Source: an uncultured virus (IMG/VR IMGVR_UViG_3300021962_006479)
Taxonomy: Duplodnaviria; Heunggongvirae; Uroviricota; Caudoviricetes
DNA: 64,000 nt
Direction: 5' to 3' (one strand)
IMG/VR virus record: IMGVR_UViG_3300021962_006479
Positions 3-61,509 of this stretch are shown one piece after another (the stretch's first letter is position 1; every line of letters begins with the position of its first letter). The notes under the pieces are model-generated. The model had not been told where the DNA came from, ran no database searches, and saw nothing but the letters and a program-made list of their open reading frames with translations. Both the position numbers and the translations under genes were made by a program.

Positions 3-365
3 GGTGTAGTAGCAACTGATACCGCAGGTGTTGGTACTGGTAGATTCTCACTTGCGGCCGCAGGTTATGGTACAGATAAAGCTATTTTTGGTTATGGTAG
101 TAATGGAACTAATCTTTCAATTACCAACCTAGTATCAAATACAGGCGTTGTGGCCACAGACGTCACAGGTGTTGGTACTGCTAGGCAGGGATTAGCAGCC
201 GCAGGTTATGGTACTGATAAAGCTATATTTGGATATGGAGCTGGCGTCAGTGGTGATTTATCAGTAACTAATCTAGTATCAAACACAGGTGTAGTTGGTA
301 ATAATGTTACTGGTGTAGGTACTGCTAGACGTTATCTAGCGGCCGCGGGGTATTCATTATCGTAA
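3..365 (+). CDS. C-terminal part of a kelch-like repeat virion/adhesin protein (begins before the window)
   Basis: Frame open from position 3; repeated unit GVGTAR..LAAAGYGTDKAIFGYG...TNLVSNTGVV. Confidence 0.65.
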   Translation, partial: GVVATDTAGVGTGRFSLAAAGYGTDKAIFGYGSNGTNLSITNLVSNTGVVATDVTGVGTARQGLAAAGYGTDKAIFGYGAGVSGDLSVTNLVSNTGVVGNNVTGVGTARRYLAAAGYSLS

Positions 366-45722: not shown

Positions 45723-45723
45723 A

Positions 45724-48466: not shown

Positions 48467-48480
48467 CACTGATTTGTATA

Positions 48481-48777: not shown

Positions 48778-48842
48778 TGCTATTCCTTTTATTAATAATG
48801 TATTTATCATCACTAAATAATTAACTCACAAAGGAATCTTAG

Positions 48843-49748: not shown

Positions 49749-49749
49749 T

Positions 49750-50910
49750 ATGTTTACCAAATATGGATATTACTTAGTAGGAGAAGAAAAACATTATAGC
49801 TGTATGTTAGCGCACATTGCAGCCTCAAAAAATAAACAACCAATATATTGGTTTTATCATGAGGATATCTTTGAAAAGGTAAACAGAGAACATTTAGGAA
49901 AATTTCCTCTAGATTTTTTCTATAAGCAACGAGCGTTACAACTAAGAGATGCGTATGACTATCTTATACTAAACTACAGTGGTGGTTCAGATAGTCATAA
50001 CATTTTGATGACTTACCTTAACAATAACATTAAGTTAGATCAAATAACAGTCAGACTACCTTTTAGTGCGTTAAATAATAATATTCATAAACCAAATCAA
50101 AACGATACTTCACAATTAAACCGATACAGCGAATGGGATTTTACAATAAAACCAATGCTTGAATGGGTATCAACAAATCATCCGTATACTAAAATAGTAT
50201 TATTAGATTGGTTAGATGAATCTGCTATGAATTCTTTAAAAGAAGATTCGTTTATAGATCCTAGGGGTGGTTACTTTTTAGGTAGTATGCTTAGGTCTGC
50301 TAACTTTGCGGTGGATCCAGGTGAACGAGAGATGTTAGATAAAGGAAAAAGTGTAGCTCTAATGTGGGGAATCGATAAACCTAGACTAATATCGTTAGGA
50401 ACAGAATCCGGCGATAAAGTCTATATGAATCTTAAAGATAAGCCAATGGTTATATCAAGTCCTACAATTCACAATCCTAATGGTACTGAGTATTTTTATT
50501 GGTCACCTGACATGCCAGAGTTAGCATGGGAAATGGCATACAAAACTTTTAAATTTTTTGACATTAACAAAGATTTAAGATATGTAATTCAAAAGATGCC
50601 TGGTCAAGGTCATACAGTTGGACATGCCAAGTGGCAAAAATTTTGTGACCTGACAGGTACAGTATTGTACTCAACATGGGATAAAAATAAGTTTCAAGTA
50701 GAAAAACCTTCATGGGGTATAAAAAGCGATATGCGACCGGGTGATGTAATAATTGAAACGTTACCTGAGCTTGCTGATCTAAAGGCAAAATGGAGATATT
50801 ATTGGAAATCATACGATAACATGTTAGACCGTTCTATCCCTAGTATTATGGAAAATGGAGAGTTTTTACCTACTGCTACAAAATGGCATTATTTAGGAAC
50901 ATATTCTTAA
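49750..50910 (+). CDS. PP-loop protein 3 (paralog of 46440-47567)
   Basis: YKQRALQLRDAYDYLILNYSGGSDSHN, GIDKP, EYFYWSP. Confidence 0.75.
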   Translation: MFTKYGYYLVGEEKHYSCMLAHIAASKNKQPIYWFYHEDIFEKVNREHLGKFPLDFFYKQRALQLRDAYDYLILNYSGGSDSHNILMTYLNNNIKLDQITVRLPFSALNNNIHKPNQNDTSQLNRYSEWDFTIKPMLEWVSTNHPYTKIVLLDWLDESAMNSLKEDSFIDPRGGYFLGSMLRSANFAVDPGEREMLDKGKSVALMWGIDKPRLISLGTESGDKVYMNLKDKPMVISSPTIHNPNGTEYFYWSPDMPELAWEMAYKTFKFFDINKDLRYVIQKMPGQGHTVGHAKWQKFCDLTGTVLYSTWDKNKFQVEKPSWGIKSDMRPGDVIIETLPELADLKAKWRYYWKSYDNMLDRSIPSIMENGEFLPTATKWHYLGTYS

Positions 50911-50927
50911 CTACAACAAATAAAAAA

Positions 50928-52388
50928 ATGATTATATTATTCAATGAAAGTCCTAACGTGCCTAACAGATCCATTGGGATTTATAGGATCGCCACAGTAT
51001 TACGCAGACAGGGTTTAGAGGTAGAAGTGATAGATTACCTATCACACTGGGATCTAGATATATTGTTTAAATATCTAGATAGTATTGAAAACATTGAATG
51101 GTTTGGATTCAGTACTAAGTTCTATCAACCCGGATTTAGTGTACAAAGTTATCTAACACAACGAAATATAGAAGGTTCAGGATTATTCACTCGTTTTTCT
51201 GTAGAAGGAGAAAACAAATTAATTTCATATATAAAAAGTAGAAAGAAAAAACTTGTATTGGGCGGTCCTAACGCAGAACTAGTTAGACACATGACAAGTG
51301 ATTTTGATATTGTATGTATGGGATATTCCGATGTCTCTGTAATTGCAATACATAATTATCTGGTTAACAACGGTACTTTGATTAGTGAATCATATAACGG
51401 AATGCAAGTGGTAAACAGTGATCGTGATTACCCGATAACTGATTTGTCCGATCTAGAAACAAACTATGATTATACTGATTTTATAAGTGACAATGAAGTA
51501 TTTCCTATAGAGATAGGTAGAGGTTGCATTTTTCATTGTGCTTTTTGTGAATTTGCCCATCTGGGTAAAAAACTAGGAACCTACATTCGTGATAAAGAAA
51601 GTATTAAAAGAGATATAGTAGATAGGTACACCCAGTATGGATCTACTAGATTTATTTTTGTAGACGATACATTTAACGATAGCATTGAAAAAATGCAAAT
51701 GATTAAAGAAATTAGAGAAGAAACTAACATTGATTTTCAATTTTGGGCATATTGTAGATTAGATTTGCTTGCATCCAAAACTGAACAAGTTGATTTAATT
51801 TCTGAAATAGGTTGGAGGTCAATGACATTTGGTGTTGAAACTTTCAACCGAGATAGTGGTAAGGCTGTTGGTAAAGGAGCTGATCCCAACAAATTAAAAT
51901 CATTTTTATTACAATTAAGAGAACGATTTCCCGATAATAAATTTCAAATTAATTTAATATTAGGCCTACCCCATGACACTGAAGAAACTGCAAGAGATAC
52001 AGTTCAATGGTTCATTGATAATCCTACGCTTACTCAACATGTAAAAGTTGGTTCTTTGGGAATTCGTAATTCAGAAGGTAGAATGTTCTCTAGTAAGTTT
52101 GCATCCAATCCAGAAAAATATGGATATACAATTACTAACAAAATTTTATACAAAAATTTGCAGTGGAAAACAGAACATATGTCAAACTCATCAGCTTCTA
52201 AATTAGCAAGTGAACTTCAAACTAAATTTAATGAATCAATAAAAGGCTTGTATGATAATAAAAATCCTATAACAGAAATGAGGGAAGAACCAGTGGTTGT
52301 AATAGACGATGAAGGTAAAGTTCATAATAATTTAAGATACATAATAAAAACCTATATTGCAAAAAAGCTTGCCCACAGACAAATTTAA
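50928..52388 (+). CDS. B12-binding-domain radical SAM protein
   Basis: G.YRIAT.LR..G, GGP, E.GRGCIFHCAFC (CxxxCxxC), DDTFND, FG.ET. Confidence 0.85.
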   Translation: MIILFNESPNVPNRSIGIYRIATVLRRQGLEVEVIDYLSHWDLDILFKYLDSIENIEWFGFSTKFYQPGFSVQSYLTQRNIEGSGLFTRFSVEGENKLISYIKSRKKKLVLGGPNAELVRHMTSDFDIVCMGYSDVSVIAIHNYLVNNGTLISESYNGMQVVNSDRDYPITDLSDLETNYDYTDFISDNEVFPIEIGRGCIFHCAFCEFAHLGKKLGTYIRDKESIKRDIVDRYTQYGSTRFIFVDDTFNDSIEKMQMIKEIREETNIDFQFWAYCRLDLLASKTEQVDLISEIGWRSMTFGVETFNRDSGKAVGKGADPNKLKSFLLQLRERFPDNKFQINLILGLPHDTEETARDTVQWFIDNPTLTQHVKVGSLGIRNSEGRMFSSKFASNPEKYGYTITNKILYKNLQWKTEHMSNSSASKLASELQTKFNESIKGLYDNKNPITEMREEPVVVIDDEGKVHNNLRYIIKTYIAKKLAHRQI

Positions 52389-52432
52389 CAATAAGTATTA
52401 AAAAATAATTGCAAAAATGGGCGAACGAAAGT

Positions 52433-52461
52433 TTGACATTAATTCAAAACCGTGCTATACT
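52433..52461 (+). promoter_or_regulatory. sigma70-type promoter
   Basis: TTGACA-N17-TATACT. Confidence 0.8.
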
Positions 52462-52537
52462 TCAGCATGAATTGAGAAAAGGTGTAAAAAACATCCGTTG
52501 TTTACACTAATTTAAAACCAGGACTAAATAAAAGACT

Positions 52538-52675
52538 ATGATGAATAAAACTTGTAACATGTTGAAACATACCGGACAGTGGCTGTCATTAGCCAGTGTA
52601 TCCTTTGTACCAGCATATCCAACAAGTATTCGCGGCAATAATGATTCACAAGAACATGGCCCGGGGACTAGGTAA
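52538..52675 (+). CDS. Putative attenuator leader peptide (45 aa) MMNKTCNMLKHTGQWLSLASVSFVPAYPTSIRGNNDSQEHGPGTR
   Basis: Starts 7 nt after ACTAAATA; all 20 amino acids, 33 distinct codons; stop codon inside the antiterminator stem. Confidence 0.7.
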   Translation: MMNKTCNMLKHTGQWLSLASVSFVPAYPTSIRGNNDSQEHGPGTR

Positions 52676-52713
52676 CAAGTTAACATCATAACTACATTTA
52701 TCTAACCCCTGGG
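52660..52713 (+). promoter_or_regulatory. Antiterminator hairpin
   Basis: CCCGGGG/CCCTGGG + TAGGTAA/TTATCTA + AGTTA/TAACT; sequesters the 5' strand of the terminator. Confidence 0.7.
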
Positions 52714-52743
52714 AACTAAAAAGTCTCAGGGGTTTTTGCTTTT
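52704..52743 (+). terminator. Intrinsic terminator (attenuator)
   Basis: AACCCCTGGGA/TCTCAGGGGTT stem followed by TTTTTGCTTTT. Confidence 0.85.
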
Positions 52744-52754
52744 ACAGAGAGGAT

Positions 52755-52783
52755 TTGACAATAAATGGATGAACAGATACAAT
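52755..52783 (+). promoter_or_regulatory. sigma70-type promoter
   Basis: TTGACA-N17-TACAAT. Confidence 0.7.
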
Positions 52784-52932
52784 ACAAAACTTCTGAAAAC
52801 AAACAAGATTGGTTTAGCAATCATGTTTTGACTAAGGAACAAGTAGCACAGTTGATAGAAAATAAACTTGAACGTGCTAGAGTCCATCATGAGGCTACTA
52901 AGAAAGTTAACCAACTGACTTACACTGATTGA
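52765..52932 (+). CDS. Possible 55-aa protein MDEQIQYKTSENKQDWFSNHVLTKEQVAQLIENKLERARVHHEATKKVNQLTYTD
   Basis: Open frame right after the attenuator with GAGGA upstream; overlaps a sigma70 promoter. Confidence 0.4.
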   Translation: MDEQIQYKTSENKQDWFSNHVLTKEQVAQLIENKLERARVHHEATKKVNQLTYTD

Positions 52933-52933
52933 T

Positions 52934-53079
52934 GACAGCGTGAATAGGCAACGAGAGCCGTAATACAGCGCAAAATGTATAGAATGGGCGGACAGTATAT
53001 ATGAAAGCATGGAGACAACATGTTAGTAAGACTACTGGGTAGGGTATTGACCCTATCATGTCGTGTAGAGATACACGGC
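52934..53079 (+). ncRNA. Unnamed structured RNA A
   Basis: Hairpins GGC/GCC, ATACA/TGTAT, CAGTA/TACTG enclosing AGCATG/CATGTT, TAGGGT/ACCCTA, GTCGTGTA-GAGA-TACACGGC. Confidence 0.5.
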
Positions 53080-53160
53080 ATTCTAAAGCATACATAGTGG
53101 AAAATAAGGCCAAGAGGGCAACTTTGATGACTAGAGTGTACTATGTGTGTTTTAGAATGC
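53078..53160 (+). repeat. 21-bp inverted repeat abutting the first tRNA (putative processing stem)
   Basis: 53078-53098 pairs with 53140-53160 (two G-U pairs). Confidence 0.75.
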
Positions 53161-53235
53161 GACCGTAACTCAGTGGATTAGAGTACCTGTCTACGAAATA
53201 GGGAGTCGGAGGTTCAAGTCCTTCCGGTCGCACCA
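53159..53235 (+). tRNA. tRNA-Arg(ACG)
   Basis: Cloverleaf, loop ctACGaa, encoded CCA. Confidence 0.92.
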
Positions 53236-53241
53236 ATATAT

Positions 53242-53317
53242 GGGACCATAGCTCAGTCGGTAGAGCAGCGGACTTTTAATCCGTTGGTCGGGCGTTCGAA
53301 CCGCCCTGGTCCTACCA
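53242..53317 (+). tRNA. tRNA-Lys(TTT)
   Basis: Cloverleaf, ctTTTaa, CCA. Confidence 0.93.
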
Positions 53318-53325
53318 TAATAAAA

Positions 53326-53417
53326 GGAAACGTGGCAGAGCCCGGTTTAATGCACCTGACTTGAAATCAGACGGATCAGCAATGGTCCCGTGAGTTCGAA
53401 TCTCACCGTTTCTACCA
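53326..53417 (+). tRNA. tRNA-Ser(TGA)
   Basis: Long variable arm, ctTGAaa, CCA. Confidence 0.9.
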
Positions 53418-53423
53418 ATATAC

Positions 53424-53500
53424 GGTGCTTGTCGTCAAGCGGTTAAGACCTCGGATTGTGATTCCGATATGCGTGGGTTCAAATCCCATCAAGCACCCCA
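53424..53500 (+). tRNA. tRNA-His(GTG)
   Basis: G-1:C73, ttGTGat, CCA. Confidence 0.92.
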
Positions 53501-53501
53501 T

Positions 53502-53576
53502 GGATGTATAGCACAAGGGTAGTGCAATTCCTTCATACGGAATAGGTTAGTAGTTCAAATCTACTTACATCCACCA
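53502..53576 (+). tRNA. tRNA-Met(CAT), elongator-like
   Basis: ttCATac loop, paired G1-C72, CCA. Confidence 0.82.
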
Positions 53577-53580
53577 ATTC

Positions 53581-53655
53581 ACCGCTATAGCTCAGTGGTA
53601 GAGCACCGCCTTGATAAGGCGTAGGTCTCTGGTTCAAATCCAGGTGGCGGTACCA
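53581..53655 (+). tRNA. tRNA-Ile(GAT)
   Basis: ttGATaa, CCA. Confidence 0.9.
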
Positions 53656-54217
53656 ATTCTGTTATCGTAGATAACAACTCATTATAGTTAGAAGGTTTAG
53701 GAACAATATAATAATTTACATCATTTATTTTGGGTAAGTCTTCGTAATATAAGTCTAAATCAAACTTAATAGGTGCTGAGTTTAATCTATAATTTGCGTA
53801 TTTAATATATAAAATATTTTGTTTAATTTTTGCTATATCAATGTTAAGAGTGTCAACTAAATTTAGTTGATCGGTGTTTCTAAAATGCCACTTAAAATCT
53901 CTTTCAGTCGCAATGTAAAAACTTGCAATTTGTTCAACAATATTTTTTCTTCTAATTCTTATTTTATAAGAATTTTCAATAAGATAATTGGATATATCGC
54001 TTCTGTATCTATTTAAATGGATATAATGGAATTTAAGAATAAAGTTTTTTGACTGAGAGAAATAATCATAAAAGTCAGTCATTTCTTTGCCGCCGGTGTA
54101 ATCAGGTTCTTTAAAGTAAGGCACGTCACACAAAGTTTGTAGATATGAACCTAACACTGAACTTCCTGTTCTAGGTGATGAAATAATTAAGATTGGGGTT
54201 TTTGTAATATTAAACAT
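53585..54217 (-). CDS. Sulfotransferase-like protein inserted antisense in the tRNA array
   Basis: SSPRTGSS, R.N...Q.AS, YED; C-terminus reads through antisense tRNA-Ile. Confidence 0.7.
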   Translation of the reverse strand: MFNITKTPILIISSPRTGSSVLGSYLQTLCDVPYFKEPDYTGGKEMTDFYDYFSQSKNFILKFHYIHLNRYRSDISNYLIENSYKIRIRRKNIVEQIASFYIATERDFKWHFRNTDQLNLVDTLNIDIAKIKQNILYIKYANYRLNSAPIKFDLDLYYEDLPKINDVNYYIVPKPSNYNELLSTITELVPPPGFEPETYALSRRCSTTEL

Positions 54218-54237
54218 CAATTATTTAGCAAGATTAT

Positions 54238-54311
54238 TGGGGGTTAGTTAAATGGCATAACATCGGATTTTGATTCCGAGATCACAAGTTCGATTCTTGT
54301 ACCCTCTGCCA
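54238..54311 (+). tRNA. tRNA-Gln(TTG)
   Basis: ttTTGat, G73, CCA. Confidence 0.9.
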
Positions 54312-54315
54312 GTTA

Positions 54316-54465
54316 TGGGATAGACGATAGGTTTGAGTCCCTGTCAATCTAGTCACAGTGGGGTTAACTGTGATGACACTATAGTATGATTGACGGGTGT
54401 GTAAACTTGCCTATACGAGACAATCTAACGAGGCTTATTAACAATAAGATAGTTAGGCTCCCACC
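54316..54465 (+). ncRNA. Unnamed structured RNA B
   Basis: TGGGA/TCCCA closing stem; ATAGG/CCTAT; CCC.GTCAATC/GATTGACGGG; TCACAGT/ACTGTGA; CTAAC..CTTATT/AATAAG..GTTAG. Confidence 0.6.
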
Positions 54466-54471
54466 TTTATA

Positions 54472-54546
54472 GGGTCCTTAGTTCAATGGATAGAATACGA
54501 TGCTTCGAACTTCGGGATGTAGGTTCAATTCCTGCAGGACCCGCCA
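54472..54546 (+). tRNA. tRNA-Arg(TCG)
   Basis: ctTCGaa (one T-T mismatch in the anticodon stem), CCA. Confidence 0.85.
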
Positions 54547-54593
54547 TATGGCATTAAATACAATTAGTGATAATAACAGAAAAGGAGTACTAC

Positions 54594-55154
54594 ATGGCTG
54601 TTCTAGCACTAGATATCTCGGGAGTTCCCCGGCAATGGATATCAAATGATGACGCAATTACCTATAAAGCAAAAGATGCCATAGCATGGTCAATGGGTAA
54701 TATTGTGGCTAAATATCGCGGTGGTATACAAAACGACGGTACATTAAGCTACTTAGAAGCATCTAGTATCATCGCTATCAAAGGTCACGGATTTAATCCA
54801 TACAAACATGCATGTGTAGCATTAAGCAATAAAACATTGTTCGGTCGTGACCGTCATGTATGTGCATACTGCGGTGAACACTTTCCTAACTATCATATGT
54901 TAAGTAGAGACCATATTGTTCCAAAAAGCAAAGGTGGTGAAAACACTTGGATGAATGTTGTTACTGCTTGTAAAGATTGTAACAGCAAAAAAGGTCATAA
55001 AAGTTTAAAAGAAGTACGTATGGAATTGCTTTATTCTCCGTACGTACCTTCACATTATGAAAATATGATATTACAACATAGAACAATACTTGCTGACCAA
55101 ATGGAATATTTGTTAGCAGGAGTACCCAAACATTCTAGGATTTGGCAGAATTAG
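54594..55154 (+). CDS. HNH endonuclease
   Basis: LF.RD...CAYCG, DHIVP.SKGG...W.N.V.AC..CN..K; AAGGAG RBS. Confidence 0.9.
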   Translation: MAVLALDISGVPRQWISNDDAITYKAKDAIAWSMGNIVAKYRGGIQNDGTLSYLEASSIIAIKGHGFNPYKHACVALSNKTLFGRDRHVCAYCGEHFPNYHMLSRDHIVPKSKGGENTWMNVVTACKDCNSKKGHKSLKEVRMELLYSPYVPSHYENMILQHRTILADQMEYLLAGVPKHSRIWQN

Positions 55155-55155
55155 G

Positions 55156-55184
55156 TTGACATAAAAGTTTTCCTATGATACAAT
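55156..55184 (+). promoter_or_regulatory. sigma70-type promoter
   Basis: TTGACA-N17-TACAAT. Confidence 0.75.
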
Positions 55185-55201
55185 ACGCTTAAATAAAATA
55201 T

Positions 55202-55276
55202 GCCGACTTAGCACAGTGGTAGTGCAATCGCCTTGTAAGCGATAGGTCATCAGTTCGAATCCGATAGTCGGCACCA
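55202..55276 (+). tRNA. tRNA-Thr(TGT)
   Basis: ctTGTaa, CCA. Confidence 0.92.
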
Positions 55277-55283
55277 AAATTAT

Positions 55284-55359
55284 TCTCCTATAGCTCAGTC
55301 GGTAGAGCGTTTGACTGTTAATCAAAATGTCCGTGGTTCGAGCCCACGTAGGGGAGCCA
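55284..55359 (+). tRNA. tRNA-Asn(GTT)
   Basis: ctGTTaa, G73, CCA. Confidence 0.93.
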
Positions 55360-55369
55360 ATCAAATACT

Positions 55370-55444
55370 CTGGCGTTAGTATAATGGATCATACAGTAGC
55401 CTTCTAAGCTATCAATAGAGGTTCGATTCCTCTACGCCGGACCA
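55370..55444 (+). tRNA. tRNA-Arg(TCT)
   Basis: ctTCTaa, CCA. Confidence 0.9.
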
Positions 55445-56031
55445 TCAACATTTTCTAGTAGTAATCGCCATTCATCACTACTGTAGTGGTAATCGTCTAA
55501 TACTTCTAACATTCTAGAAAAAACTATTAAACCTCTTTTGTGGTTAATTACTTCATTATGAAGTCCTAATACTTGTTTATCAACAACCAACTTTAGTAAG
55601 TTCTCGCCTTCTTTTTTTAATCTAATCTTGTTAGAAATAATATTATATTTGGCGATTAATTCATTACATTCTACAATAGCATCTGTTGTCAGTTGATGTA
55701 ATGCACGGATCTCAATTTTCATTTTTAATATTAAATCATCAAACTCTGGATTAATATGTTGAATAAAATGTGAAACCATAACAGATAATCTGCCCATAAC
55801 TTCACTGTCGATGTTAATATTATTGTAATGATCGCCGGTTGAATCATAGTGTTTACGTTTAATTGGATCACTCAACACTTCATATGCGAATTTAATTTGT
55901 TTGAACTTTTCCACATCTCCTCCTTTATCAGGATGATGTAATTGTGCTAAAATTTTGTATTTTTGTTTGATTTCTTCAGACGTACAATTTTTGGGTAATT
56001 TTAGTTCATCATATAAGGTAGGTTGTTCCAT
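55432..56031 (-). CDS. DnaJ/J-domain protein
   Basis: LY..L......EIK..Y..LA...HPDK.GD...F..I..AYEVLSD...R..YD. Confidence 0.9.
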   Translation of the reverse strand: MEQPTLYDELKLPKNCTSEEIKQKYKILAQLHHPDKGGDVEKFKQIKFAYEVLSDPIKRKHYDSTGDHYNNINIDSEVMGRLSVMVSHFIQHINPEFDDLILKMKIEIRALHQLTTDAIVECNELIAKYNIISNKIRLKKEGENLLKLVVDKQVLGLHNEVINHKRGLIVFSRMLEVLDDYHYSSDEWRLLLENVDGPA

Positions 56032-56085
56032 AAGAATATTTATCATCAAGTATTTTATGTAGTATTAAGTACTAAAATCGTAAAT

Positions 56086-56114
56086 TTGACAATAAATCCT
56101 CAATCTGCTATACT
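56086..56114 (+). promoter_or_regulatory. sigma70-type promoter P1 of a tandem pair
   Basis: TTGACA-N17-TATACT. Confidence 0.8.
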
Positions 56115-56167
56115 CTATGTATAGATTGATTGAACAAGTTCTTGGAAACAGAGACACAAAAAAGAAT

Positions 56168-56196
56168 TTGACAATAAATGGTAGTTATGATACAAT
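56168..56196 (+). promoter_or_regulatory. sigma70-type promoter P2 of a tandem pair
   Basis: TTGACA-N17-TACAAT. Confidence 0.8.
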
Positions 56197-56236
56197 CATA
56201 GCATGAGTTGAAAAAGTCATCGCACTAATCAACAAA

Positions 56237-56247
56237 GTTCTTTAAAA
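56237..56247 (+). promoter_or_regulatory. boxA-like antitermination site
   Basis: GTTCTTTAAAA versus the rrn boxA consensus GCTCTTTAACA, just downstream of the promoters. Confidence 0.6.
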
Positions 56248-56283
56248 TTTAATTTTTCATATAGCCCTGTTTAAGTTACAGGG

Positions 56284-56502
56284 ACTATATGTAAACATAT
56301 TAAGGGTTACCTGATCCGTTAGGTACTCTATGGAAGCATAACCAGTTGACGGACTGGCTTCGCATAGAGTACAAGAAGCGTACCGACAATAGCAATATTG
56401 TTTAACGTGACGGGCAGTTAGGCAGTAATGACGAATGACATTGCATCAGTAGACGGTACTGATTATTTGTTTAATAGTTCCCATAGTGTGTTTTCATATA
56501 GT
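56284..56502 (+). ncRNA. Unnamed structured RNA C inside a long processing stalk
   Basis: 56284-56306 pairs with 56480-56502; internal GTACTCTATG/CATAGAGTAC, CCAGT/ACTGG, ACAATA-GCAA-TATTGT, ATCAGTA/TACTGAT. Confidence 0.65.
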
Positions 56503-56503
56503 G

Positions 56504-56631
56504 TGTTATTAGTTTTGCTGATGTAAGCCATTGAGTAAACGTCAACTCTAAGTAACTATGTATATAAACGGTACGTCCAGCTGGCAATTCCGTTGAGCAT
56601 AGCAAATAGTGCGTCAGCAAAACTAATAACA
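56504..56631 (+). ncRNA. Unnamed RNA D closed by a 21-bp inverted repeat
   Basis: 56504-56524 pairs with 56611-56631; inner CTATG/CATAG and AACGG/CCGTT. Confidence 0.6.
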
Positions 56632-56632
56632 T

Positions 56633-56707
56633 GGAGCATTCGTCTATCGGTTAGGACATTAGGTTTTCATCCTAAGAAGAGGAGTTCGATTCTCCTATGC
56701 TCTTCCA
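56633..56707 (+). tRNA. tRNA-Glu(TTC)
   Basis: ttTTCat, CCA. Confidence 0.9.
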
Positions 56708-56709
56708 AA

Positions 56710-56896
56710 GAATCCCGTTACTATTTTCGTTAAAATAGCGTTTGATTAATGATAGAGATCCGGTGGCAGAAGACCGTTAGCGAGTTAATTACTCTGAATC
56801 TGATAGGCAGTATCTCTCTGCACACAGACGTTAGAATAAAAGAGATGGACAGAGTAACCGCTCAATTAAGGGCTGGCATGGAAACCAGTAGCTTAT
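56710..56896 (+). ncRNA. Unnamed structured RNA E
   Basis: CTATTTT/AAAATAG, CGGT/ACCG, AGCG/CGCT, TTACTCTG/CAGAGTAA, ATCTCT/AGAGAT, CTGG/CCAG. Confidence 0.55.
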
Positions 56897-56904
56897 ACTA
56901 ATAC

Positions 56905-57026
56905 ATAACATAGATGTATACAACAACCCTAATATTATACACATCTATGTTATACTAATTTTTGAGTTACATCGCCCTGACACTTCTCTCAGTAATGAGA
57001 CACTAGGTCTTGCAACCGTAACTCAT
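56905..57026 (+). repeat. Two hairpins: ATAACATAGATGT/ACATCTATGTTAT and TGAGTTAC/GTAACTCA
   Basis: Visible inverted repeats between RNA E and tRNA-Tyr. Confidence 0.55.
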
Positions 57027-57029
57027 CTT

Positions 57030-57114
57030 GGAGATGAAGCATCAATGGTGATGCAGTGGACTGTAAATCCGCCGCCTTATGGCACGACTGGTTCGATCCC
57101 AGTAATCTCCACCA
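57030..57114 (+). tRNA. tRNA-Tyr(GTA)
   Basis: ctGTAaa, long variable arm, CCA. Confidence 0.9.
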
Positions 57115-57187
57115 AGAATATAGGAGAGTCGCTGGGCAGGCGTACTCTTAATCGACCTAGGCCAAAGGGGTGTCCTATTCTACTTAT

Positions 57188-57264
57188 GCACCGTTAGCGC
57201 AGTTGGTTAGCGCACCGCCCTGTCACGGCGGGGGTCAGGGGTTCGAGTCCCCTACGGTGCGCCA
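57188..57264 (+). tRNA. tRNA-Asp(GTC)
   Basis: ctGTCac, G73, CCA. Confidence 0.93.
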
Positions 57265-57271
57265 AGTATTA

Positions 57272-57359
57272 GGAGAGTTGGGTGAGTGGTTAAACCAGCA
57301 GATTGCTAATCTGTCATCCAGAAATGGGTGCGTGGGTTCGAATCCCACACTCTCCACCA
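57272..57359 (+). tRNA. tRNA-Ser(GCT)
   Basis: ttGCTaa, long variable arm, CCA. Confidence 0.92.
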
Positions 57360-57363
57360 GAAC

Positions 57364-57557
57364 GTTCCGGGTGTCTCCGGATAGTGTGACCCACACGATG
57401 AGAAGTAGTGTGACAACTACGGGTGGTAGTCTTTAAACCGAAAGGCCGCTGGCAGTGCGAGAACGGTCCCTGTCGGGAAGCGGGTGGAAGGAGTGTGTGA
57501 TGGGTATGATAGCGTCATATCTTGATACTCTATAATTACCGCCGGGGGATGCAGAGC
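57364..57557 (+). ncRNA. Unnamed GC-rich multibranched RNA F
   Basis: GTGTCTCC/GGGGATGC, GTGTG/CACAC, GTAGT/ACTAC, GGTGGTAGT/ATTACCGCC, CC-GAAA-GG, CCGCT/AGCGG, GGGTATGA/TCATATCT. Confidence 0.7.
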
Positions 57558-57562
57558 AATAT

Positions 57563-57640
57563 GCATCGGTGGCAGAGTGGTCAAATGCAACGGATTGCAA
57601 ATCCGTAAAATCGTCAGTTCAAATCTGACCCGATGCTCCA
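57563..57640 (+). tRNA. tRNA-Cys(GCA)
   Basis: ttGCAaa, U73, CCA. Confidence 0.92.
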
Positions 57641-57658
57641 AATTATATAAATAGTTGT

Positions 57659-57847
57659 ATGATAGTACAAAGTATATCTACAGCTTGGGACATGGTTAAT
57701 AACCAACAGAGACTTACTGTATATAAAGATATAAATGATCCTGTAACTAATAAACAAATTATTGAAGTTGTACAATATCTGTACAATATAGTAGGTGAAA
57801 TAGAACCTACTCATAGTAAAGGTCAAAACATAGATACAAAATCATAA
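57659..57847 (+). CDS. Small hypothetical protein (62 aa)
   Basis: TATAAATA 5 nt upstream of the ATG. Confidence 0.6.
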   Translation: MIVQSISTAWDMVNNQQRLTVYKDINDPVTNKQIIEVVQYLYNIVGEIEPTHSKGQNIDTKS

Positions 57848-57851
57848 ACTT

Positions 57852-57925
57852 ATCTCCCTAATGTAATGGCAGCATACCGGTCTCCAAAACCGTTAGTCAA
57901 GGTTCGAGTCCTTGGGGGGATGCCA
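57852..57925 (+). tRNA. tRNA-Trp(CCA)
   Basis: ctCCAaa, G73, CCA. Confidence 0.9.
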
Positions 57926-57961
57926 AAATTATCAGGCATGCTTGCACTATATAAATAATGC

Positions 57962-58444
57962 ATGTCTAAAAAAAAGAAAACAATTCCCATAGTTGATGCT
58001 AACACTTTAGAGAAAACTAAACCTGTTATAGATAGAAAATGTGATGGTTGTACCGCATGTTGTGAAGGTTGGTTAAGCGGTGAAGCATACGGTCACCATT
58101 TTTTTAACGGAATGCCTTGCCATTACAAAGGTAGTAATGGCTGTACAATATACAATGATAGACCTGAAAATCCTTGCGTATCTTATAAATGTGCATGGTT
58201 AATGCATCCAGAAATATTTCCTGAATGGATGAAACCTAGTCAATCTAAAGTATTGATGAATGTTAGTGAACAGCATGGACACTATTTTCTCAATCTTATA
58301 GAAATGGGTCAAAAGATGGATTCAAAACTATTGTCTTATATTATAATGCAATACCTGCAAGGAAAGATACCAAACGTAAGATGGCAAGTAGATGGTGCAT
58401 GGTATACGATAGGTTCTACTGAATTTGTACAATCTATGAAGTAA
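57962..58444 (+). CDS. YkgJ-like Cys-cluster protein
   Basis: CDGCTACC...C......CTIY.DRP..PC..Y.C.WL. Confidence 0.75.
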   Translation: MSKKKKTIPIVDANTLEKTKPVIDRKCDGCTACCEGWLSGEAYGHHFFNGMPCHYKGSNGCTIYNDRPENPCVSYKCAWLMHPEIFPEWMKPSQSKVLMNVSEQHGHYFLNLIEMGQKMDSKLLSYIIMQYLQGKIPNVRWQVDGAWYTIGSTEFVQSMK

Positions 58445-58449
58445 TAATT

Positions 58450-58542
58450 GCCCCTGTAGTTTAATGGTTAAAACGGCGGATTTATATCCCGTAAGCAACA
58501 GATAATTGGTTCATCCGAGTTCGACTCTCGGCGGGGGTACCA
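58450..58542 (+). tRNA. tRNA with UAU anticodon (nominally Ile) and a long variable arm
   Basis: GCCCCTG/CGGGGGT acceptor, A73, ttTATat loop, 22-nt variable region, CCGAG-TTCGACT-CTCGG T arm. Confidence 0.8.
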
Positions 58543-58548
58543 AATAAA

Positions 58549-58577
58549 TTGACAACATATCTTAATTGATATATAAT
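58549..58577 (+). promoter_or_regulatory. sigma70-type promoter
   Basis: TTGACA-N17-TATAAT, perfect consensus. Confidence 0.85.
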
Positions 58578-58585
58578 AAGAACAT

Positions 58586-58662
58586 GCGCTTATAGCTCAG
58601 TGGTTAGTAGCAGCGGCCTCATAAGCCGTTGGTCCCTGGTTCAAATCCAGGTGGGCGCACCA
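58586..58662 (+). tRNA. tRNA(CAT), Ile2/lysidine-type likely
   Basis: ctCATaa; body resembles bacterial ileX-type tRNAs; CCA. Confidence 0.75.
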
Positions 58663-58664
58663 AA

Positions 58665-58829
58665 TTACAATGAATGAATAAAATCTAATGCCGGTTCAAT
58701 ATTGGTAAAAAATTTTATTACAGTTGTATTGGATTGTAAATTGTGTACAAGGATGTAACACACAGCATCGTCGGTCATTGATAAGTGTATCAATAATCCC
58801 GTAGCTGTGATAGCGTCATATGTATGCAT
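58665..58829 (-). CDS. Small hypothetical protein (54 aa)
   Basis: ATG 4 nt after TAAATA on the minus strand. Confidence 0.5.
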   Translation of the reverse strand: MHTYDAITATGLLIHLSMTDDAVCYILVHNLQSNTTVIKFFTNIEPALDFIHSL

Positions 58830-58842
58830 AAAGTATTTATGA

Positions 58843-58866
58843 GCGGGGTTCGTATAGTGGTAAAAC
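58843..58866 (+). pseudogene. 5' fragment of a tRNA-Gly-like gene
   Basis: GCGGGGTTCGTATAGTGGTAAAAC looks like an acceptor 5' strand plus D arm; truncated before the GIY-YIG gene. Confidence 0.5.
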
Positions 58867-58897
58867 AGCAGATTACACATTATTGATAAATAAATGT

Positions 58898-59440
58898 ATG
58901 AAATACTATTATTACATATACCAAATTACTAATTTGTTAGACAACAAAATTTATATAGGCACTCATAAAACTAAGAATTTAAATGATGGTTACATGGGAT
59001 CCGGTAAAATCTTAAATTATGCAAAAGACAAATATGGAATTGAAAATTTTAAAAAAGATATTTTAGAATATTTTGATACAGCAGAAGAAATGTTTGCTAG
59101 GGAAAAAGAACTTGTAAATGATGAATTCCTATTAAGGGAAGATGTTTACAATATTCGTAGAGGTGGTTTTGGTGGCTTCGATTATATAAACAAGTCGGGT
59201 ATGCCTAAGATGTTAGGTAAACACCATAGTCAAGAAACCAGAGATAGGTTGTCAGAAGTCTTGATTGCAAGACGTAAGAATGGTACAGCACCTAAAATGA
59301 CCGATGAAGTTCGTATGAATATTTCAGAATCTAAATTAGGTACAAAATATAAATCAAGACCACCAAAGTCAGAAGAACATAAAAGAAAGATATCAGATGC
59401 TATTAAGAAAAAATGGCAAGAAAAGGATCAACGCGGGTGA
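58898..59440 (+). CDS. GIY-YIG (Seg-like) homing endonuclease with NUMOD3
   Basis: YIYQITN....KIYIG.H......Y.GSG, YG.ENF.K.IL, YN...GG; stop codon inside tRNA-Gly. Confidence 0.88.
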   Translation: MKYYYYIYQITNLLDNKIYIGTHKTKNLNDGYMGSGKILNYAKDKYGIENFKKDILEYFDTAEEMFAREKELVNDEFLLREDVYNIRRGGFGGFDYINKSGMPKMLGKHHSQETRDRLSEVLIARRKNGTAPKMTDEVRMNISESKLGTKYKSRPPKSEEHKRKISDAIKKKWQEKDQRG

Positions 59441-59508
59441 AGTGTTTTTGGTTACACGTCTGCCTTCCAAGCAGAAATAGACGAGTTCGACTCTCGCCTC
59501 CCGCTCCA
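59433..59508 (+). tRNA. tRNA-Gly(TCC)
   Basis: ctTCCaa, U73, CCA; T-T mismatch in the acceptor stem. Confidence 0.85.
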
Positions 59509-59585
59509 ATAACAAGGCTTGGACCTCTGTGATAACTAACCGGTAAATGATTATTATACGTCTGAGTTCTTCTAACCCAAAATGT

Positions 59586-59631
59586 TTGACAGTATATGAT
59601 TATTGTTATATACTATGTATGTTCTTTAAAA
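59586..59631 (+). promoter_or_regulatory. sigma70-type promoter followed by a boxA-like site
   Basis: TTGACA-N17-TATACT (59586-59614), then TGTTCTTTAAAA (59620-59631). Confidence 0.7.
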
Positions 59632-59640
59632 AGTTTAATT

Positions 59641-59725
59641 GCTCTGGTGGTGTAATTGGTAGCCACGCTGGTCTTAGAAGCCAGTGCCGAAAGGCGTGTC
59701 GGTTCGAGTCCGACCTGGAGCACCA
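59641..59725 (+). tRNA. tRNA-Leu(TAG)
   Basis: ctTAGaa, long variable arm, CCA. Confidence 0.92.
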
Positions 59726-59730
59726 AAGTT

Positions 59731-59895
59731 ATGATAACAGAGTATAAGGTTATAAATGCTAGTTATGATGAATTTCATAAACTAGTAGCAGAATTATTGT
59801 CTGAAGGCTGGCAACCGCAAGGTGGTGTCAGTGTGGTTCGTAGTTGGTATGCATTAAACCCAACTACATATTACTTTCAGGCATTTGTGAGATAA
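59731..59895 (+). CDS. Small protein, DUF1737-like (54 aa)
   Basis: YKV.....F...V...L.EGW.P.GGV......YFQA. Confidence 0.6.
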   Translation: MITEYKVINASYDEFHKLVAELLSEGWQPQGGVSVVRSWYALNPTTYYFQAFVR

Positions 59896-59896
59896 T

Positions 59897-59981
59897 GCGA
59901 GTGTGGTGAAATAGGTAGACACAAGAGACTTAAAATCTCTCGCCGAAAGGTGTGCCGGTTCGATTCCGGCCACTCGTACCA
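59897..59981 (+). tRNA. tRNA-Leu(TAA)
   Basis: ctTAAaa, long variable arm, CCA. Confidence 0.92.
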
Positions 59982-59986
59982 AATTA

Positions 59987-60062
59987 GGGGGATTAGCTCA
60001 GTTGGGAGAGCGGTTGCTTTGCAAGCAATAGGTCGCAGGTTCGATCCCTGTATCCTCCACCA
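59987..60062 (+). tRNA. tRNA-Ala(TGC)
   Basis: G3-U70, ttTGCaa, CCA. Confidence 0.93.
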
Positions 60063-60080
60063 GATATGATAAATAGTATT

Positions 60081-60257
60081 ATGCGAGTAAAAATTTTAAT
60101 AAATGATAAAATTTATAAAACAATAACTGTTACGGGTGATAGCTATCAACCCAAAGACTATTGGCAAGAAATAAATATTGCCAAAGCAAACGGTTTGCTA
60201 TCAGACTTCAACGTTGAAGACGGACTCAAGGTTGAGTTTCGTCCTATTGTAGCATAA
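60081..60257 (+). CDS. Small hypothetical protein
   Basis: GATAAATA 5 nt upstream of the ATG. Confidence 0.55.
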   Translation: MRVKILINDKIYKTITVTGDSYQPKDYWQEINIAKANGLLSDFNVEDGLKVEFRPIVA

Positions 60258-60280
60258 ATTCACATCATAACAATATATAC

Positions 60281-60355
60281 CGTGGGGTGGAGAAGTAGTA
60301 ACTCATCAGTCTCATAAGCTGAAGATCGGCGGTGCGAATCCGTCCCCCGCAACCA
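60281..60355 (+). tRNA. Initiator-type tRNA-fMet(CAT), atypical
   Basis: C1xA72 mismatch; anticodon stem TCAGT/GCTGA lacks the three G-C pairs; T loop TGCGAAT. Confidence 0.8.
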
Positions 60356-60404
60356 ACCATTAAGAAAGCGAGGTCAATATGCGATTTTAGATAAGGAGAA
60401 CTTT

Positions 60405-60725
60405 ATGTCTAGAACGTACAAAGATCGTCCCAGTAAACTCAGATTCCCTGAAGAAGATTGGGATTACAAATATTACCTCATTGGTAATCGTAAGTATATT
60501 GACTATTTACAATACCCCGGGGTTTTAACAAAAAAGAAAAAAAAAGTTGATACAGAGTATCACTGGATGAGCACTCCCATGTGGTGGGTTCGTGAAATGA
60601 TGAATCAACCACAACGAGCAAAAGGTCGTCAGTGGGAGAAAATTGTATTGAATGTAGATATCAATGATTTGGATATCATTGATTACCCTAGTGTGAGCCG
60701 TAAGCCACACTGGTACTACTGGTAA
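60405..60725 (+). CDS. Hypothetical phage protein
   Basis: AAGGAG RBS; MSRTYKDRP... Confidence 0.6.
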   Translation: MSRTYKDRPSKLRFPEEDWDYKYYLIGNRKYIDYLQYPGVLTKKKKKVDTEYHWMSTPMWWVREMMNQPQRAKGRQWEKIVLNVDINDLDIIDYPSVSRKPHWYYW

Positions 60726-60732
60726 GAATATT

Positions 60733-60810
60733 CGGAGTGTAGCGCAGTCTGGTTAGCGCATCTGCTTTGGGAGCAGAGGGTCGTGAGTTCGAATCCCACC
60801 ATTCCGACCA
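60733..60810 (+). tRNA. tRNA-Pro(TGG)
   Basis: ttTGGga, CCA. Confidence 0.92.
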
Positions 60811-60832
60811 ATTTAATTAAAAAGGAAATATT

Positions 60833-60997
60833 ATGACATGCAGAGGATATGATGCGAAAGCAGTGAAAGTTTCAAAGACAGTTAAACGTGCCGCGGCAAA
60901 AATTCGTGACGCACATGAACGTGGTGCATTCATTCGCAGTTTTGCTGTGATTGAACAAAGTAATTCACGTGGTTCTGGAAAGACTAATAACAAATGA
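60833..60997 (+). CDS. 54-aa basic protein MTCRGYDAKAVKVSK... (absent from ORF track)
   Basis: AAGGA RBS; ATGA coupling to the next ORF. Confidence 0.6.
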   Translation: MTCRGYDAKAVKVSKTVKRAAAKIRDAHERGAFIRSFAVIEQSNSRGSGKTNNK

Positions 60998-61173
60998 GTA
61001 AGGGTTCTAGTCCAAGACCATTTAGTGTCCCATTAAAGACATTTGATAGTAACTTTGACTTAATCTTTCGTAAGCCTGATCCAAGAATTGTTGAGGATCA
61101 CAAAAACGAAGATGATGAATTTGAACGTATTGTTAGTGAAACAAAAGTTAAAGATAGCACACAGGGTGGTTAA
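60994..61173 (+). CDS. 59-aa protein MSKGSSPRPFSV... (absent from ORF track)
   Basis: ATGA overlap with the upstream ORF. Confidence 0.6.
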   Translation: MSKGSSPRPFSVPLKTFDSNFDLIFRKPDPRIVEDHKNEDDEFERIVSETKVKDSTQGG

Positions 61174-61183
61174 ATAGAATAAG

Positions 61184-61258
61184 GCATCGATAGCTCAGGG
61201 GTAGAGCGTCTCCTTTACACGGAGAGGGTCCGCGGTTCGAAACCGTGTCGATGTACCA
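61184..61258 (+). tRNA. tRNA-Val(TAC)
   Basis: ttTACac, CCA. Confidence 0.92.
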
Positions 61259-61272
61259 AATAGGAATAATAT

Positions 61273-61422
61273 ATGCCAATGTATGAAACAACAGTTAGAA
61301 CACCACAAGGTGATACTAAAGATCGTGTGTATGCACCGACCGTACAAGAAGCTAAAAAGCTTTTTGAACAACGACATGGACCACGTAATGTACCATATAT
61401 ACCACATGTTATTCCAAGTTAA
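61273..61422 (+). CDS. 49-aa protein MPMYETTVRTPQG... (absent from ORF track)
   Basis: AGGA RBS; exactly fills the spacer between two tRNAs. Confidence 0.6.
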   Translation: MPMYETTVRTPQGDTKDRVYAPTVQEAKKLFEQRHGPRNVPYIPHVIPS

Positions 61423-61423
61423 T

Positions 61424-61499
61424 GCGGGCGTAGCTCAGTTGGTAGAGCATTACCTTGCCAAGGTAAATGTCGAGAGTTCGAGCCTCTTCGCCCGCTCCA
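61424..61499 (+). tRNA. tRNA-Gly(GCC)
   Basis: ttGCCaa, U73, CCA. Confidence 0.93.
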
Positions 61500-61509
61500 A
61501 GGAATTTTA

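Follow-up and report, generated by a model that had tools for sequence, protein, structure and literature searches.

A leader ORF encoding all 20 amino acids and a candidate transcription attenuator ahead of a phage tRNA array

The control of transfer RNA genes is generally placed at initiation and in processing, and phage tRNA arrays are reportedly debated as a means either of codon compensation or of escape from tRNA-targeting defences (PMC10264068, PMC11555353). In trp-type attenuation the position of the ribosome on a leader open reading frame (ORF) decides between an antiterminator and a terminator, while T-box riboswitches make an antiterminator/terminator choice by binding one uncharged tRNA directly through RNA-RNA contacts, and need no translation. 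In the upstream ORF (uORF) of mycobacterial whiB7, efficient translation leads to termination, and stalling leads to antiterminator formation and read-through (PMC10274678). Here we analyze a stretch of 64,000 nucleotides (the window) from an uncultured T4-like lake phage (IMG/VR IMGVR_UViG_3300021962_006479), in which a short leader ORF with all 20 amino acids ends in an antiterminator hairpin that shares a strand with an intrinsic terminator, and stands ahead of an array of tRNA genes. With moderate probability this element is a ribosome-mediated transcription attenuator that reads the entire aminoacyl-tRNA pool by means of a leader peptide forming a 'pangram' of the genetic code, and that controls additional transcription towards the array. 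Searches of the literature turned up no phage tRNA array described as being under leader-peptide or attenuator control.

A leader ORF kept at 20 amino acids

The ORF and the conserved sequences that mark its family are:

52538..52675, plus strand: leader ORF, 45 codons plus TAA, 20 amino-acid kinds and 33 distinct codons; peptide MMNKTCNMLKHTGQWLSLASVSFVPAYPTSIRGNNDSQEHGPGTR
52516..52531, plus strand: conserved 16-mer AACCAGGACTAAATAA, with the core AGGACTAAATA at 52520-52530
52616..52636, plus strand: nucleotide-conserved block within the ORF, TATCCAACAAGTATTCGCGGC, 21 nt, codons Y-P-T-S-I-R-G

An earlier sequence-only reading of the window had singled out this ORF for its amino-acid and codon content, and translation of 52538-52675 confirmed both. 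Nineteen kinds are reached by codon 36 and the 20th (Glu) at codon 39, and the synonymous sets that had been listed are all present: Gly GGA/GGC/GGG, Leu TTG/CTG/TTA, Ser TCA/TCC/AGT, Thr ACT/ACC/ACA, Gln CAG/CAA, Pro CCA/CCG, Ala GCC/GCA and Arg CGC/AGG. The leader is the sole ORF with 20 kinds among the 75 ORFs of 40-50 amino acids in the window, five others reaching 19. Sliding windows over the real proteins of the window held 20 kinds in 52 of 9601 cases at 45 amino acids and in 209 of 9421 at 57. Taken alone, the 20 kinds of this ORF are unusual and not decisive; the family data are decisive.

The element is one of a large family carried by uncultured T4-like phages. The 16-mer occurs exactly in at least 120 IMG/VR stretches, and the family was sampled from the exact matches listed. 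Of 123 such matches, 109 carry a homologous ORF of 35-70 codons that starts 19-23 nt after the start of the 16-mer, and the remaining 14 are unrelated sequence. In one relative, whose neighbouring radical-SAM protein is 79% identical, the arrangement recurs with an ORF of 57 codons. The leader frame is open in 109/109 homologous loci despite divergent sequence, as was to be expected if the proposal that the ORF is conserved while its sequence diverges is right. Among loci found by an unrelated pattern, the 16-mer was exact in 15 of 26 family members and 1-3 nt off in the other 11, where its core was intact except for a single change in one member.

Among 70 distinct complete IMG/VR peptides (43-58 amino acids), 63 contained 20 kinds and 7 contained 19. 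A second sample was drawn without any DNA pattern by a HMMER profile search of 1.84 billion representative proteins, which gave 56 hits. Three were dropped (an unrelated 464-amino-acid repeat protein, an N-terminal fragment and a peptide with an aberrant tail), upstream extensions reading through the 16-mer were trimmed, and 51 new 50%-identity representatives were kept, of which 40 had 20 kinds, 9 had 19 and 2 had 18. Independent draws from the pooled composition of the family gave 2.6 peptides with 20 kinds per 70 (maximum 8 in 500), and the composition of the window proteome gave 0.3 per 70. Shuffling residues within columns among sequences gave 17.7 per 70 (sd 3.3, maximum 29 in 2000), and evolution on the family tree with per-column frequencies gave about 18 per 70 (sd 5-10, maximum 48), with 0/400 tree-aware simulations reaching 63 at each of three rates. 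As matched controls, a neighbouring conserved small ORF had 13-18 kinds in 30/30 distinct cases, and only 5/244 other ORFs of 43-58 amino acids in the same loci had 20.

The rare residues were also found to relocate. Among 121 peptides, all five that lack the usual Trp have a Trp elsewhere, compared with an extra Trp in 7 of the other 116 (Fisher p = 4e-6), and 15 of the 23 without the usual Cys have one elsewhere, compared with 5 of 98; the corresponding test for His was set aside, being inflated by an alignment split. Mean copies per leader were 1.00 for Cys, 1.04 for Trp and 1.10 for His. The excess amino-acid and codon diversity that had been proposed as a check thus lies beyond every null and control, indicating that the leader family is kept at all 20 kinds by selection, far beyond chance.

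The order of the residues appears much less constrained. The pairwise ratio of nonsynonymous to synonymous differences (pN/pS) of the leader was 0.38 for pairs with 90-99% nucleotide identity and 0.55-0.70 for less similar pairs, with differences nearly flat over codon positions, whereas the adjacent radical-SAM gene gave a pN/pS of 0.15, its first, second and third codon positions differing by 0.19, 0.08 and 0.46. These values indicate that the peptide sequence is weakly constrained while its composition is kept.

Codon choice was analyzed by synonymous resampling. Leaders cover a mean of 28.55 of 32 decoding groups, compared with 26.7 ± 0.15 in resampled sequences under either usage, and use a mean of 36.5 distinct codons, compared with 33.1 (family usage) or 31.3 (phage-gene usage); 0/300 resamplings reached the observed decoding-group or codon counts, in tests that count related sequences as independent and so overstate the effect size. 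Leu codons come from both boxes in 94% of leaders (expected 69%), Ser codons in 100% (85%) and Arg codons in 85% (59%), and both the Y and R halves of the Gly box are used in 100% (86%). The rarest decoding groups among 78 leaders are Leu CUY (22), Val GUY (22), Arg CGR (24) and Pro CCY (47), and, CGR excepted, these are groups without a matching tRNA in the window phage. The window leader has cognate codons for 23 of the 25 anticodons of its array, Arg-UCG and Ile-UAU being without one (by our count). The GC content at third codon positions was 0.37 in leaders and 0.20 in phage genes. The direction of these tests fits a sensor acting at the tRNA level rather than only at the amino-acid level.

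Within the block 52616-52636 third positions are also conserved. The S-I-R codons, present in 67 of 78 ORFs, are AGY only (59 AGT, 8 AGC), ATY only (64 and 3) and CGY only (56 CGC, 11 CGT). No conserved pairing partner was found for this block, which may act to pause the polymerase or may supply test codons that are kept unchanged. The leader peptide has no Pfam family. A cmscan search of 51500-64000 against Rfam at E up to 1 returned only tRNAs and noise, with nothing in 52430-52750, so that no T-box or other Rfam cis-regulator was detected there.

Competing hairpins at the end of the ORF

Two RNA structures share one strand downstream of the leader codons:

52660..52713, plus strand: antiterminator hairpin; the 5' strand is formed by the last ORF codons and the stop, and 52707-52713 of the 3' strand is the terminator 5' arm
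52705..52743, plus strand: intrinsic terminator ACCCCTGGGA / TCTCAGGGGT, arms 52705-52714 and 52724-52733, 9-nt loop, followed by TTTTTGCTTTT

Folding confirmed the proposed 19-bp hairpin that shares a strand with an intrinsic terminator. The RNA 52640-52716 forms 7+7+5 = 19 pairs at -23.0 kcal/mol (z = -4.0; 0/200 shuffles as good). Residues 52707-52713 pair with either 52660-52666 or 52724-52730, making the two structures mutually exclusive. The fold of the whole 278-nt transcript contains the terminator, and a local fold with the 3' arm added still prefers the antiterminator. A simple pattern scan overlooked the terminator because its loop is 9 nt long.

Compensatory changes, which had been suggested as a check on both hairpins, were found in each. 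In 77 relatives 98.1% of terminator cells are paired and 5/10 pairs have changed on both sides; 0/500 shuffles match the paired share, the number of both-side-changed cells or the covariation score, 1/500 reaches five such pairs, and controls slid along the sequence are 22-70% paired. For the antiterminator, a covariance model was built from 18 window-type sequences and matches were kept at E up to 0.005, a cut-off chosen since the near-palindromic hairpin also gave opposite-strand matches. The resulting alignment (44 matches, 39 distinct) has 93.2% of cells paired and 9/19 pairs changed on both sides; 0/500 shuffles reach the observed values, and 32-57% of cells pair in slid controls. The alignment was made to fit the model, and most long-ORF relatives are missing from it; for these the hairpin is backed by single-sequence folds only. 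Plain MAFFT alignments of the antiterminator, analyzed with RNAalifold, gave 5 and 7 invariant pairs and no covariation, the subfamilies being in different registers with little internal variation. The middle stem is built from different sequences in each subfamily (TAGGTAA/TTATCTA, GGAATAA/TTATTTT and TTTCATA/TATGAAA), and in one relative (L088), with the terminator arm CCCCTGAG and the ORF strand CTCGGGG, a C-G pair has turned into U-A.

A hairpin of the antiterminator type is the minimum free energy (MFE) structure of the segment ending at the terminator 5' arm in 79/79 relatives (-17 to -39 kcal/mol), and alone it is more stable than the terminator in 77/79 (mean -24.0 vs -16.6 kcal/mol). 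The distance from the stop codon to the terminator arm is nearly fixed (median 29 nt, sd 2.0, range 21-33, n=79), whereas the ORF varies from 43 to 58 codons (sd 15 nt). In 76/79 the stop lies 7-15 nt past the start of the antiterminator strand (short forms, including the window) or 30-36 nt past it, in the apical loop (long forms); in the three exceptional relatives it lies 23, 43 and 49 nt past it. With the ORF ending there, a finishing ribosome is predicted to block the antiterminator and spare the terminator. In 66/79 leaders all 20 kinds have appeared before the antiterminator strand begins (6-nt margin), so in these the codons overlapping the hairpin contribute no new kind.

RNAalifold on 41 window-type leaders, based on MAFFT alignments that a weak structure may escape, found no 1:2-type pause/anti-antiterminator hairpin and only a 3-pair hairpin; the first 120 nt of the ORF likewise showed no conserved pairing.

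The tRNA array and the flanking regions

The claim that the element heads tRNA arrays was borne out by its genomic context. Where the downstream flank extends for 1200 nt or more, tRNA genes lie 3' of the leader in 51 of 54 loci; they share its strand and stand a median of 487 nt past the stop. In none of the 73 loci with 1000 nt or more of upstream flank does a tRNA gene lie 5' of it. The radical-SAM gene lies 5' of the leader in only 7/109 family loci (tblastn set), three of the seven being the window's own contig or identical. Since this gene is rare and tRNAs are frequent, the conserved partner of the leader ORF is the tRNA array and not the enzymes. Downstream of the terminator the window contains:

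52755..52783, plus strand: second sigma-70-type promoter, TTGACA-17-TACAAT, which bypasses the terminator
52765..52932, plus strand: 55-codon ORF, function unassigned, its ATG between the -35 and -10 boxes of the 52755 promoter
52925..53100, plus strand: conserved structured RNA (AACGAG RNA), with an invariant AACGAG loop at 52950-52955 and an invariant GGGCGG at 52986-52991
53159..61499, plus strand: tRNA array, 27 genes with 25 distinct anticodons, homing-endonuclease and other ORFs between them

The sequence-only reading had counted 27 tRNA genes, and this number was recovered as 26 by ARAGORN plus a tRNA-Tyr GUA (57030-57111) by Rfam. It had also placed promoters at 52433 and 52755, both of which were found, and had cautioned that the latter bypasses the terminator. 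This caution holds for the window, and the same promoter sequence also lies 3' of the terminator in many window-type relatives; it does not hold for the compact relatives, which have no strict promoter before the first tRNA. A strict sigma-70 pattern between terminator and first tRNA was absent in 10 of 12 loci scanned (eight compact relatives, L001 and L024). In the compact relatives, where the first tRNA starts 333-364 nt past the stop, the 55-codon ORF and the second promoter are missing, and the leader, terminator, AACGAG RNA and tRNAs are kept in one apparent unit, so that the switch appears to gate the array directly. This comparison indicates that in the window the 52755 promoter and the 55-codon ORF are inserted behind the terminator, and the switch would therefore add to a constitutive level of transcription.

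The 55-codon ORF has tblastn relatives in 42 loci, with the middle of the protein conserved, and no Pfam family. Since its ATG (52765) lies between the promoter boxes, only transcripts reading through the terminator would include its start; this ATG is not conserved in L001. The AACGAG RNA is present in 52/52 distinct loci (including L001, 8199-8370), with GGGCGG 30-40 nt after the loop and compensatory changes in 4/6 predicted pairs. It has no Rfam match, and may itself be processed into a small RNA or serve as a signal for processing of the tRNA precursor.

Expression was followed in assembled RNA-library contigs (Logan), which show presence and neither transcript ends nor levels. Contigs with 0-3 differences from four runs of three studies cover 52806-52997, all ending at 52987-52997, and in run X1 contig depth peaks at 52942-52978. 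A contig of a relative (run X1, 15 differences) spans 52563-52682 and resumes at 52753, and no near-identical contig over the leader was found among the Logan contigs. These data show that the phage occurs in RNA libraries and point to an abundant RNA 3' of the switch.

Between 53585 and 62046 the array is broken up by ORFs on both strands, and perfect sigma-70-type promoters occur within it at 55156, 56086, 56168, 58549 and 59586. The ORFs include:

54567-55154: HNH endonuclease (domain match)
55432-56049, minus strand: DnaJ-domain protein
58883-59440: GIY-YIG/NUMOD3 endonuclease (domain match)
61510-62046: methyltransferase (domain match)

The features upstream of the leader ORF, besides the 16-mer, are:

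52433..52461, plus strand: sigma-70-type promoter of the leader transcript, TTGACA-17-TATACT, 11/12 positions matching
52481..52508, plus strand: predicted 5'-untranslated region (5'-UTR) hairpin (GGTGTAAA...TTTACACT), in MFE and centroid folds of the whole transcript

The promoter pattern TTGACN-16..18-TAnnnT was found 40-55 nt 5' of the 16-mer in 68 of 81 distinct upstream regions of relatives, and the sequences of the 5'-UTR hairpin region differ among relatives yet can pair too (judged by eye). In L001, 7455-7680 holds a duplicated promoter module: one leader is preceded by three sigma-70-type promoters in tandem, and a similar CATGAATTGAGAAA... start region comes after each of them.

The 16-mer contains a Shine-Dalgarno (SD)-like AGGA 14 nt 5' of the ATG and a CTAAATA box 7 nt 5' of it. 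We take CTAAATA (52524-52530) to resemble the T4-type late promoter box (TATAAATA). It lies just 5-8 nt from the leader ATG family-wide, so a late transcript would start 0-3 nt before the AUG and give a nearly leaderless leader mRNA. CTAAATA sites also occur at 442, 9887, 21033, 41502, 41657 and 48813, each followed by a normal SD; they stand 18-24 nt 5' of the ATGs at 9912, 21061, 41688 and 48843 and farther 5' of two more genes (sites 442 and 41502). The motif is not over-represented in the window (20 found vs 24.6 expected).

The window corresponds to IMG/VR contig 3300021963_005690. Other window proteins include baseplate wedge, tail-fibre and ribonucleotide reductase proteins and homing endonucleases. 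The stretch 45015-52388, 5' of the switch, is an enzyme island encoding a fatty-acid desaturase, an Asp/Arg hydroxylase-like protein, two TctC-like binding proteins, an SGGSDS-motif protein and the radical-SAM protein. No match to the leader region, the radical-SAM protein, the 55-amino-acid ORF or the AACGAG RNA was found in 50,697 deposited phage records, nor was one found there for the leader peptide at E up to 1.

Proposed mechanism, alternatives and known attenuators

The anatomy of the element, its conservation, the selection for 20 kinds and the covariation of its pairings are established by the analysis. The translation, timing and response of the switch we infer from the trp-type model and from whiB7, the confinement of the composition signal to the leader frame being an indirect sign of translation, as follows. 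Transcription would begin at the 52433 promoter, with the CTAAATA box before the ATG as a possible second start, and a ribosome would translate the 45-codon leader, meeting each amino acid, mostly once or twice, and sampling about 28 of the 32 tRNA decoding groups. A ribosome within about 70 nt of the polymerase would sit on 52660-52675 while 52705-52743 is made; with the strand CCCGGGG...TAGGTAA held in the ribosome, the terminator hairpin would form and the transcript would end at the T run. If a scarce aminoacyl-tRNA delayed the ribosome at any earlier codon, the more stable antiterminator (52660-52713) would form first and sequester the terminator 5' arm, and the polymerase would continue into the conserved small RNA and the tRNA array. 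The outcome would be demand-driven extra transcription of the phage's own tRNA genes.

Folding with a ribosome placed on the stop, which had been proposed as a check, agreed with this scheme in part: the terminator forms in 63/79 relatives, and overall folding with and without the footprint does not discriminate cleanly. The claim of an attenuator responding to a stall at almost any codon is supported by the comparative anatomy and selection, and weakened by the position of the last kinds (Glu, Gln, Asp), close to the antiterminator.

Several results weigh against an attenuator that senses the whole pool. With a ribosome on the stop, 16/79 relatives still permit the antiterminator; by our inference, made without a row-by-row check, these are the long-ORF relatives with the stop in the apical loop. 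Equilibrium folding of the free 3' segment produced the terminator in 49 of the 79 relatives and the antiterminator in 27, with neither structure in the remaining 3. The leading edge of a stalled ribosome lies about 12 nt beyond the A-site codon, and with this value 17/79 leaders have 20 kinds in the effective zone, 36 have 19 and 23 have 18; with a 9-nt edge 36/79 have 20. The kinds too near the antiterminator strand (6-12 nt) are Glu in the window (codon 39) and Glu, Gln or Asp in relatives, so a ribosome stalled there may mask the strand and not free it. Since no 1:2-type hairpin was found, the untranslated default would be read-through, unlike in trp. The leader AGGA is 14 nt from the ATG, compared with about 7-8 nt for the SD of other window genes, and in the window the strong 52755 promoter is predicted to transcribe the array regardless of the switch. 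A pN/pS below 1 and the conserved H, W and P-(T)-S-I-R-G positions indicate constraint beyond composition, and the conservation of the block 52616-52636 and of some residue positions is not explained by the model. The inflated effect size of the codon tests counts on the same side, and translation of the leader, 3' ends at 52743 and regulated read-through are deduced from sequence and analogy.

A translation sensor might have another main output, either the terminated RNA of about 270 nt or the peptide acting in trans, or the 55-codon ORF or AACGAG RNA. Trans-acting attenuator RNAs and peptides are reportedly known (rnTrpL, peTrpL; PMC6614838, PMC7298713), the array is already driven by the 52755 promoter, the ATG at 52765 would be carried by read-through transcripts only because it lies between the boxes of that promoter, and the AACGAG RNA lies 3' of the switch in 52 distinct loci. 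We nevertheless consider this unlikely, as the compact relatives keep the leader, terminator, AACGAG RNA and tRNAs without the 55-codon ORF and second promoter, the ATG of this ORF is not conserved (L001), and a trans-acting peptide would not require 20 kinds with shifting positions. A somewhat more doubtful explanation is that this is an ordinary gene for a small protein, equipped with its own promoter and terminator; the hairpin would then be only an extended or mRNA-stabilising 3' structure, and the full set of amino acids a by-product of a complex, conserved peptide. Lost rare residues that turn up elsewhere in the peptide, a frequency of 20 kinds far above the tree-aware and column nulls, and synonymous choices that keep to tRNA decoding groups and are over-dispersed are not what such a gene predicts. 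Nor does it predict a hairpin and terminator that share a strand and both covary, or a fixed stop-to-terminator spacing, and the peptide has no Pfam family and no match in cultured phages. It would accommodate the conservation of the ORF, the nearly invariant H, W, P, S, I, R and G positions, the promoter and terminator that are present and a pN/pS below 1, a value that at 0.4-0.7 nevertheless differs from the 0.15 of the real neighbouring gene.

That the element is a non-coding structured RNA with an incidental open frame is very improbable: the frame is open in 109/109 homologous loci despite indels and lengths of 43-58 codons, the all-20 property is confined to the leader frame, no conserved pairing was found in the first 120 nt of the ORF, and the element matches no Rfam family, although the 16-mer and the block 52616-52636 show the strong nucleotide conservation, third positions included, that such an RNA would have. 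The position of the ORF directly after a radical-SAM gene (PF04055) and a gene with an SGGSDS motif, which we take to be a PP-loop motif, brought up the precursor of a ribosomally synthesized and post-translationally modified peptide (RiPP) as a substrate of these two enzymes. This candidate was rejected as next to inconceivable because the radical-SAM gene does not co-occur with the leader (7/109 loci, three of them the window's contig or identical), and the ORF has its own promoter and tRNAs 3' of it in 51/54 loci.

The attenuator reading can be carried further, and we do so only tentatively. The leader might be a codon-by-codon mirror of the phage tRNA set, with a single test codon for each tRNA species and, in a closed feedback loop, the array transcribed on demand until its roughly 25 isoacceptors suffice; as depletion of any one tRNA would open the switch, it might also act as an inducible counter-measure to host anticodon nucleases or tRNA-depleting defences, and late in infection it might be read from a nearly leaderless mRNA starting at CTAAATA. 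If this mirror were real, it would be the first known translation-based regulator of tRNA genes and an all-purpose natural sensor of decoding capacity. If the attenuator reading itself is right, a ribosome-read attenuator before tRNA genes would be a new control logic, in which decoding supply is set by a direct test of decoding; large phage tRNA arrays would be not only constitutive codon-usage patches and could be demand-driven, which would bear on the debate between codon compensation and escape from defences. The leader family is one of few clear examples in which selection acts on what a peptide contains rather than on the order of its residues, and the compact cassette of about 300 nt, with sigma-70-type promoters, is a possible generic reporter for any amino-acid or tRNA limitation.

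Compared with described systems, the element has the structural features of a leader-peptide attenuator, judged by sequence comparison, and lacks the codon enrichment and the 1:2 hairpin. Like the enterobacterial trpL, hisL, leuL, thrL, pheL and ilv leaders, to which it has no sequence relationship, it consists of a short 5' leader ORF and a terminator before the putative target genes, with an antiterminator that shares one terminator strand and draws its other strand from the end of the ORF. The enterobacterial leaders span 14-32 codons and repeat one or a few regulatory amino acids in runs, whereas the phage leaders have 43-58 codons and one to few copies of every amino acid; the lack of enrichment for any single residue is the main departure from classical attenuators. 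The former also have a 1:2 pause/anti-antiterminator hairpin, which was not found in the phage leaders, and control biosynthetic enzymes, whereas the phage element precedes tRNA genes and is carried by a phage. With T-boxes it would have in common the coupling of the state of the tRNA pool to terminator read-through, and it would differ in reading all tRNAs via the ribosome.

The toiL uORF of the E. coli topAI-yjhQ transcript is reported to sense ribosome-targeting antibiotics at specific codons (PMC12121999); it resembles the phage leader in reporting general translation stress via ribosome stalling, and is not known to have a link to tRNA genes or amino-acid completeness. The nearest concept is the whiB7 uORF. 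The residues it contains decide which starvations are sensed, a single Trp codon being sufficient for Trp starvation, and it is enriched in alanine with variable contents, the M. tuberculosis uORF being without several kinds and that of M. smegmatis without only Cys (PMC10274678). As in the phage, the uORF ends before an intrinsic terminator, and translation makes the choice between termination and read-through, in the phage by prediction. Host and sequence are unrelated, no whiB7 gene lies downstream in the phage, and Ala makes up 6.7% of leader residues. Completeness is not conserved in the whiB7 uORF, which acts on a stress-regulon transcription factor, whereas in the phage leaders completeness is under selection and the target would be the supply of tRNA.

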